DNA of 64,000 bases from Escherichia phage vB_EcoM_VR20: the sequence record NC_028894.1, one strand, 5' to 3'. The position numbers and the translations under genes were made by a program. The notes beneath the pieces were generated by a model, which saw only the letters and a program-made list of their open reading frames with translations, was not told the DNA's origin and did no database searches. Position 1 is the first letter of the stretch. Each line of letters opens with the position of its first letter. Below, piece by piece: positions 41,170 through 41,625 of the stretch.

Positions 41170-41625
41170 CTACTTTAAATCCGCCGACCAATTTAATTTT
41201 AGCGGTTCTTTATATTCACGGTCCAAAACAACCGGAATCTGGACTTCTCCTTTATACGTCAAAGGACCAACATTATAAGATAATGTTATGTGAGGAGTAT
41301 AGTCCGGGAAATCATGTGTTGCGCCAATGGCTCGTGCATACATATGTCTGCAACTAAGATAATCTGAATTCAGTACAAGAACCAGGGTACTCCCATCATC
41401 AGTTTTCCATACTTCCAGGTGACCAGAGTTGGCTACTTCGAAACTACCAGAGGCAACAACATATGGAATATTTACTCTGGAATAACAAATAGTGGAATGG
41501 AATTTTTCACGAGGAACGGGATTAGGTACCTTAAGAGAGCGCTGGAGATTTTCCAGCGCATCAAGAGTTAATTCTGAAAATTTGGCTGCAACATAAAGTC
41601 CTTCAGAGACTTCATTTAATGTCAT
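41170..41625 (-). CDS. 57B: gp57B, 2H-phosphoesterase fold (T4 57B/Acb1 homolog)
   Basis: 151 aa; two H-x-T/S motifs (HSTICY, HITLSY); position upstream of 57A as in T4. Confidence 0.7.

Follow-up and report, generated by a model that had tools for sequence, protein, structure and literature searches.

The window analysed here is a stretch of 64,000 nucleotides from Escherichia phage vB_EcoM_VR20 (NC_028894.1). At 41170..41625 on the minus strand it carries an open reading frame that starts with ATG and encodes 151 amino acids, with an end coordinate that takes in the TAG stop; the call was made from the ORF listing together with Pfam and PDB matches. This frame is the acb1 gene (gene 57B) of a VR7/SP18-like T-even phage of the genus Gaprivervirus, and its GC content is the same as that of the window, 39.9%. 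The first-pass annotation had placed two H-x-T/S motifs at this position, and both the coordinates and the motifs turned out to be exact, each motif being strictly H-x-T. Read directly from the sequence, HSTICY corresponds to residues 43-48 (nt 41482-41499) and HITLSY to residues 112-117 (nt 41275-41292). The first catalytic motif, H43-S44-T45, is encoded on the minus strand by the codons cat-tcc-act at 41491..41499 and is equivalent to H44/T46 of phage T4, and the second, H112-I113-T114, is encoded on the same strand by cac-ata-aca at 41284..41292 and is equivalent to H113/T115. The predicted C-terminal lid, comprising residues 144-151 (LNWSADLK) and including the base-stacking W146 (W147 in T4), lies at 41173..41196, minus strand.

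The 3.5 kb surrounding acb1 are 95-97.6% identical at the DNA level to T-even phages of E. coli and Shigella, the relatives over this region being TH57, phage 212, P896, CJ20, vB_EcoM_VR7 and SP18. VR7 is classified in Straboviridae, Tevenvirinae, Gaprivervirus. Directly upstream of acb1 is gene 57A, which encodes the tail-fibre assembly chaperone (41625..41855, minus; Pfam GP57 PF17594, E=7e-31), and nearby on the same strand is gene 1, encoding dNMP kinase (Pfam DNMK, E=1e-76). Gene 3, gene 2 (DNA end protector) and gene 4 (head completion) follow farther along, and genes for internal proteins lie downstream of 57B. Based on Pfam and PHROG matches, the resulting order of internal-protein-like genes-57B-57A-1-3-2-4 is the same as that in the annotated VR7 and T4 records. 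Within this region, the junction of genes 3 and 2 (~43130-43215) is devoid of a mobile endonuclease, as in CJ20 and SP18, whereas a MobB-like mobile (homing) endonuclease separates the two genes in VR7, VR25 and some relatives. The VR7 match to the 3.5-kb region falls into 3 pieces that together extend over 4391 nt in VR7, versus 3501 nt in the window. The mechanically called ORF for gene 3 (42529-43293, minus) encodes 254 amino acids, whereas the annotated VR7 gp3 has 199. The N-terminal extension of the 254-residue frame runs into the end of gene 2 and probably goes untranslated, and the true start of gene 3 is likely at 43128.

The 57A stop codon (TAA) and the acb1 start codon (ATG) overlap as TAATG (junction sequence gaagaaTAATGaca), which suggests, at the level of sequence, that 57A and acb1 may be co-transcribed and translationally coupled. 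When the minus strand between gene 3 and acb1 was scanned, no terminator-like site was found. Considering this result and the TAATG overlap, acb1 is most simply read as the last cistron of a transcription unit of gene 3, gene 1 and 57A. A scan for sigma-70 promoters around acb1 returned 15 promoter-like sites against 12.3 expected from shuffled sequence, and since this is no better than shuffled sequence we assigned no promoter to acb1. For the T4 late-promoter core TATAAATA, there are 8 copies in the window where chance would give 5.3, a difference without significance. One of the exact copies, a candidate, lies inside gene 1 at 42066-42073 on the minus strand, upstream of 57A-acb1. Between the acb1 stop and the next gene there is a stem-loop with an extended helix, GTGTAGG-N14-CCTACAC (41131-41158, minus), whose RNA minimum free energy is -16.3 kcal/mol (z = -2.65; 2 of 200 shuffles fold as well). 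Lacking a T-run, this stem-loop does not conform to the usual intrinsic terminator; it might stabilise the mRNA or serve in its processing.

Directly downstream of acb1, between 39566 and 41109 on the minus strand, is a tandem run of five small genes. The individual frames (39566-39799, 39854-40132, 40188-40487, 40496-40768 and 40777-41109, all minus) have N-termini resembling that of T4 internal protein I (MKTYQEFINE, MQTLHEFLVE, MKTFNELFNE and MNIKTYNEFLAE), and three of the five matched PHROGs of internal head or virion proteins. This run has the look of an expanded, hypervariable internal-protein locus, and its products could presumably be injected anti-defence proteins. In T4, ipI is an anti-restriction gene (Hobbs et al. 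2022, PMC9117128).

To assign the 151-residue product to a family, we compared it with profile, structure and sequence collections. The Pfam Acb1 model (PF23474) matched with an E-value of 1.5e-59 and 200.3 bits, above the family cut-off of 27 bits, and the match extends over residues 8-148, corresponding to profile positions 1-143 of 144. The best match among PDB sequences was Acb1 of Erwinia phage FBB1 (7T26/7T27; E=3.7e-62), whose crystal structures come from Hobbs et al. With E-values of 1.5e-59 for PF23474 and 3.7e-62 for 7T26, the resemblance to Acb1 is far beyond chance. In pairwise alignment, the protein is 83% identical to the whole of T4 gp57B (NP_049750.1), the two being offset by one residue at the N-terminus, and 99% identical to VR7 gp57B; by tblastn, the product of phage CJ20 is 100% identical and a homologue is present in 1477 phage records. 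Among 80 clusters matched in a large protein collection, all but one short fragment carry PF23474, so that the domain is present in 79 of 79 full-length homologues, and the cluster at 99% identity bears the UniRef name 'Anti-CBASS protein Acb1'. The first-pass annotation had called the frame a 57B homologue of the Acb1 family, which the end-to-end PF23474 match and the identity to T4 gp57B bear out, and it had stated that T4 gene 57B is reported to encode Acb1; T4 57B is indeed the founding Acb1.

The structure of the protein was predicted with AlphaFold2 from a 29-sequence alignment from which the T4 sequence was left out. The model has a mean pLDDT of 90.7 and a pTM of 0.83, and confidence is low only at the first five residues and in the C-terminal lid, where the pLDDT drops to 72 and then to 48. 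Such values in the lid are consistent with a mobile segment, as judged from the model. The predicted structure matches the compact 2H phosphoesterase fold with its central beta-sheet pocket. In a Foldseek search of the PDB, the top matches to the model were 7T26 and 7T27 (E=4.6e-20, RMSD 0.9-1.2 Å, target-normalised TM 0.93-0.96), followed by a Burkholderia phage phosphodiesterase deposited as Acb1 and then by LigT and other 2H enzymes.

The last of these matches bear on the possibility that the gene encodes a LigT-like 2'-5' RNA ligase, or a cyclic phosphodiesterase that processes the ends of RNA molecules, tRNA repair being one example. The description of PHROG 755 reads 'RNA ligase', 57B of T4, VR7 and SP18 bears the same RefSeq name, E. 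coli LigT and other 2H enzymes are found as distant fold matches (E ~1e-4, TM ~0.5), and acb1 lies near the phage tRNA gene region. However, the Pfam model 2_5_RNA_ligase2 (PF13563) scored only 11.9 bits (E=0.24), below the same 27-bit cut-off, and covered only residues 90-121 around the second HxT, and the Foldseek matches to LigT were at 12-15% identity with an RMSD of 6-8 Å and a TM of 0.42-0.55, compared with 0.9 Å for Acb1. Furthermore, cGAMP-cleaving activity was what guided the purification of the T4 orthologue, and the cyclic-nucleotide pocket residues are all conserved in the VR20 protein, as is a putative lid. An RNA-end enzyme is thus very unlikely. As for the 'RNA ligase' label itself, it is a legacy transfer at the level of the superfamily, and as a specific function it is contradicted by a Pfam score below threshold and by the remoteness of the LigT fold matches.

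In T4 Acb1, the scissile phosphate lies over an HxT/HxT tetrad of H44, T46, H113 and T115, and an H44A/H113A mutant has no catalytic activity; base stacking is provided by Y12, W74, F107 and W147, and E141 contacts adenine N6 (Hobbs et al. 2022, PMC9117128). In FBB1 Acb1, the ligand is covered by a closing lid made up of residues 145-152 (Hobbs et al. 2022, PMC9117128). Counted along the sequence, these published residue numbers fit T4 gp57B. When the window protein was aligned pairwise with T4 57B/Acb1, the check suggested by the first-pass annotation, its catalytic histidines sat on the Acb1 active-site residues: H43/T45/H112/T114 align column for column with H44/T46/H113/T115. Y11, W73, F106, W146 and E140 are likewise identical to Y12, W74, F107, W147 and E141, so that all nine functionally named residues are the same in the two proteins. 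In a family alignment of 30 sequences reaching down to 29% identity, H43, T45 and the segment P111-H112-I113-T114-L115 are invariant among the homologues, and at least 90% of the sequences retain Y11 and E140. The lid segment has the same length as in T4 and contains the conserved Trp (W146), and it differs from that of T4 by three substitutions, D146N, A148S and D149A in T4 numbering.

Considering the whole of this evidence, we judge that the frame is very probably an intact acb1 whose enzyme would destroy CBASS cyclic di- and trinucleotide signals during infection. For the VR20 protein itself, the sequence, the predicted fold, the identity of the active-site and pocket residues, purifying selection and synteny are established, and we infer its chemistry, substrate range and anti-CBASS phenotype on the basis of the orthologues in T4 and FBB1. 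The T4 enzyme was purified by tracking cGAMP-cleaving activity, cleavage of both 3'3'-cGAMP and cAAA was seen with T4 Acb1 and with each of 9 other homologues, and the anti-CBASS phenotype in vivo was seen with T4 Δacb1 and with Acb1 expressed in trans (Hobbs et al. 2022, PMC9117128). By homology, acb1 of VR20 would encode a small, metal-independent 2H phosphoesterase which, during infection, would bind the messengers made by host CBASS cyclases, such as 3'3'-cGAMP, cUA, cAAA and cAAG; its ligands would be CBASS cyclic di- and trinucleotides with at least one adenosine. The bases would be stacked by Y11, W73, F106 and W146, adenine N6 would be read by E140, and the C-terminal lid would shut over the ligand. 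The enzyme would then twist the adenosine such that its 2'-OH attacks the 3'-5' bond, and H43/T45/H112/T114 would cut 3' of the adenosine in two steps, via a 2',3'-cyclic phosphate, to give a linear 3'-phosphate product. With the signal linearised, the CBASS effector would never be activated and abortive infection would be prevented.

Since 26 positions differ from T4, three of them in the lid, the quantitative substrate preferences of the VR20 enzyme could differ from those of T4 Acb1. The lid changes D146N, A148S and D149A, together with D108P next to the stacking Phe, are the proposed cause of such a shift; that the Acb1 of Gaprivervirus departs measurably from T4 Acb1 in substrate spectrum or kinetics seems to us improbable. 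If true, such a departure could alter the set of CBASS or cA3 signals that the enzyme destroys, or the strength with which the phage is sensed by Panoptes and similar decoy-guard systems. A related reading is that the protein is an Acb1-fold enzyme whose main target lies outside CBASS, for instance cA3 of type III CRISPR or another system, or whose spectrum has been shifted by the lid. Acb1 degrades cA3 in vitro, and T-even phages encoding Acb1 are sensed by Panoptes systems that guard cA3 (PMC13577387); the lid of the VR20 protein also departs from that of T4 at the three positions given above. However, the base-contacting residues are all identical to those of T4, and T4 Acb1 cannot cleave cA4, a signal common in type III CRISPR immunity (Hobbs et al. 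2022, PMC9117128). This related reading has very little probability, and it would extend the Acb1 mechanism without replacing it by another.

To see how the gene is constrained, we computed dN/dS by the Nei-Gojobori method. The ratio was 0.07 between the window gene and that of T4 (74% nucleotide identity), where dS is ~1.9 and nearly saturated, and 0.04 between the window gene and that of VR7 (7 synonymous and 1 non-synonymous change). Based on these two ratios, the Acb1 protein is under strong purifying selection, and acb1 is a resident, constrained coding sequence. It is barely conceivable that the gene is decaying or already inactive, in the manner of the acb1 of phage Bas43 with its nonsense mutation: while Panoptes escapers mutate acb1, and natural as well as selected loss-of-function alleles exist under Panoptes pressure (PMC13577387), the VR20 frame is full length without a premature stop or frameshift, its catalytic tetrad is intact, its dN/dS is 0.04-0.07, and several phages isolated independently of one another encode the same protein or one 99% identical to it. 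Pseudogenisation was ruled out by the intact frame and the low dN/dS.

Elsewhere in the window, a homologue of Vs.4 is encoded on the minus strand at 23900-24175. It is 64% identical to T4 Vs.4 over 88 aa, matches the Pfam model Acb2_Tad1_hairpin (E=1.3e-15) and lies in a T4-like context of vs.3, regB, vs.1, vs and tk.4. We take Vs.4 to be the cyclic-nucleotide sponge Acb2, and because of this the phage would pair a degrading enzyme (Acb1) with a sequestering protein (Acb2). A homologue of Tk.4 (21712-22167, minus), 59% identical to T4 Tk.4, contains a Macro domain (PF01661, E=4.6e-8); this domain, which would bind or hydrolyse ADP-ribose, is potentially relevant to counter-defence.

An intact acb1 and an acb2 homologue predict resistance to many CBASS systems that signal through cGAMP or cA3, and suggest that the phage may be vulnerable to Panoptes-type guards, which sense the depletion of cyclic nucleotides (PMC13577387). 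These predictions are useful for the choice of therapeutic phages or for the prediction of host range. Nothing here is substantively new, in that publications already cover the Acb1 family with its mechanism, structure and genomic context, and GenBank already has an identical protein. A literature search for Acb1 together with Gaprivervirus found no paper, and the names VR7, SP18 and CJ20 and their accession numbers did not occur in the supplementary files of Hobbs et al. that were searched. The main value of the analysis is one of annotation: several genomes of the Gaprivervirus clade say 'hypothetical protein' or 'RNA ligase' where the gene should be named acb1.

Compared with known systems, the VR20 protein is closest to gp57B of the other Gaprivervirus phages VR7, SP18 and CJ20, which are 99-100% identical in protein and ~97% identical in DNA over the surrounding 3.5 kb, and which were deposited as 'conserved hypothetical protein', 'RNA ligase' or 'hypothetical protein'; VR7 gp57B differs at a single residue, having D in place of N86. 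T4 Acb1 (NP_049750.1; Hobbs et al. 2022, Nature 605:522) has 152 residues versus 151 and shares the HxT/HxT tetrad, the Y/W/F/W stacking residues and the adenine-reading Glu, and in both phages 57B sits between the internal-protein locus and 57A-1-3-2-4. In contrast with T4 Acb1, the VR20 protein is one residue shorter at the N-terminus and carries 26 substitutions, including D108P beside the stacking Phe, and five internal-protein-like genes lie downstream of 57B where T4 has a single ipI gene. FBB1 Acb1 (7T26, apo; 7T27, product complex) is 65-68% identical and, like the VR20 model, has a 2H phosphoesterase fold with a C-terminal lid, which is putative in the VR20 protein. The first motif of FBB1 reads H-T-T-I-V-Y rather than H-S-T-I-C-Y, the middle residue of H-x-T not being catalytic, and Erwinia phage FBB1 differs from VR20 in the genus of its host. 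More distantly, E. coli LigT (5LDI), the viral 2',5'-PDEs MHV ns2 and rotavirus VP3, among others, and the poxvirus cGAMP PDE also have the 2H fold and two HxT/S motifs, and metal-independent transesterification chemistry is known for the 2H superfamily. LigT and the other 2H enzymes are nevertheless only 10-15% identical to the VR20 protein (TM ~0.4-0.55, RMSD 5-8 Å), act on different substrates and have neither the lid nor the pocket of Acb1.
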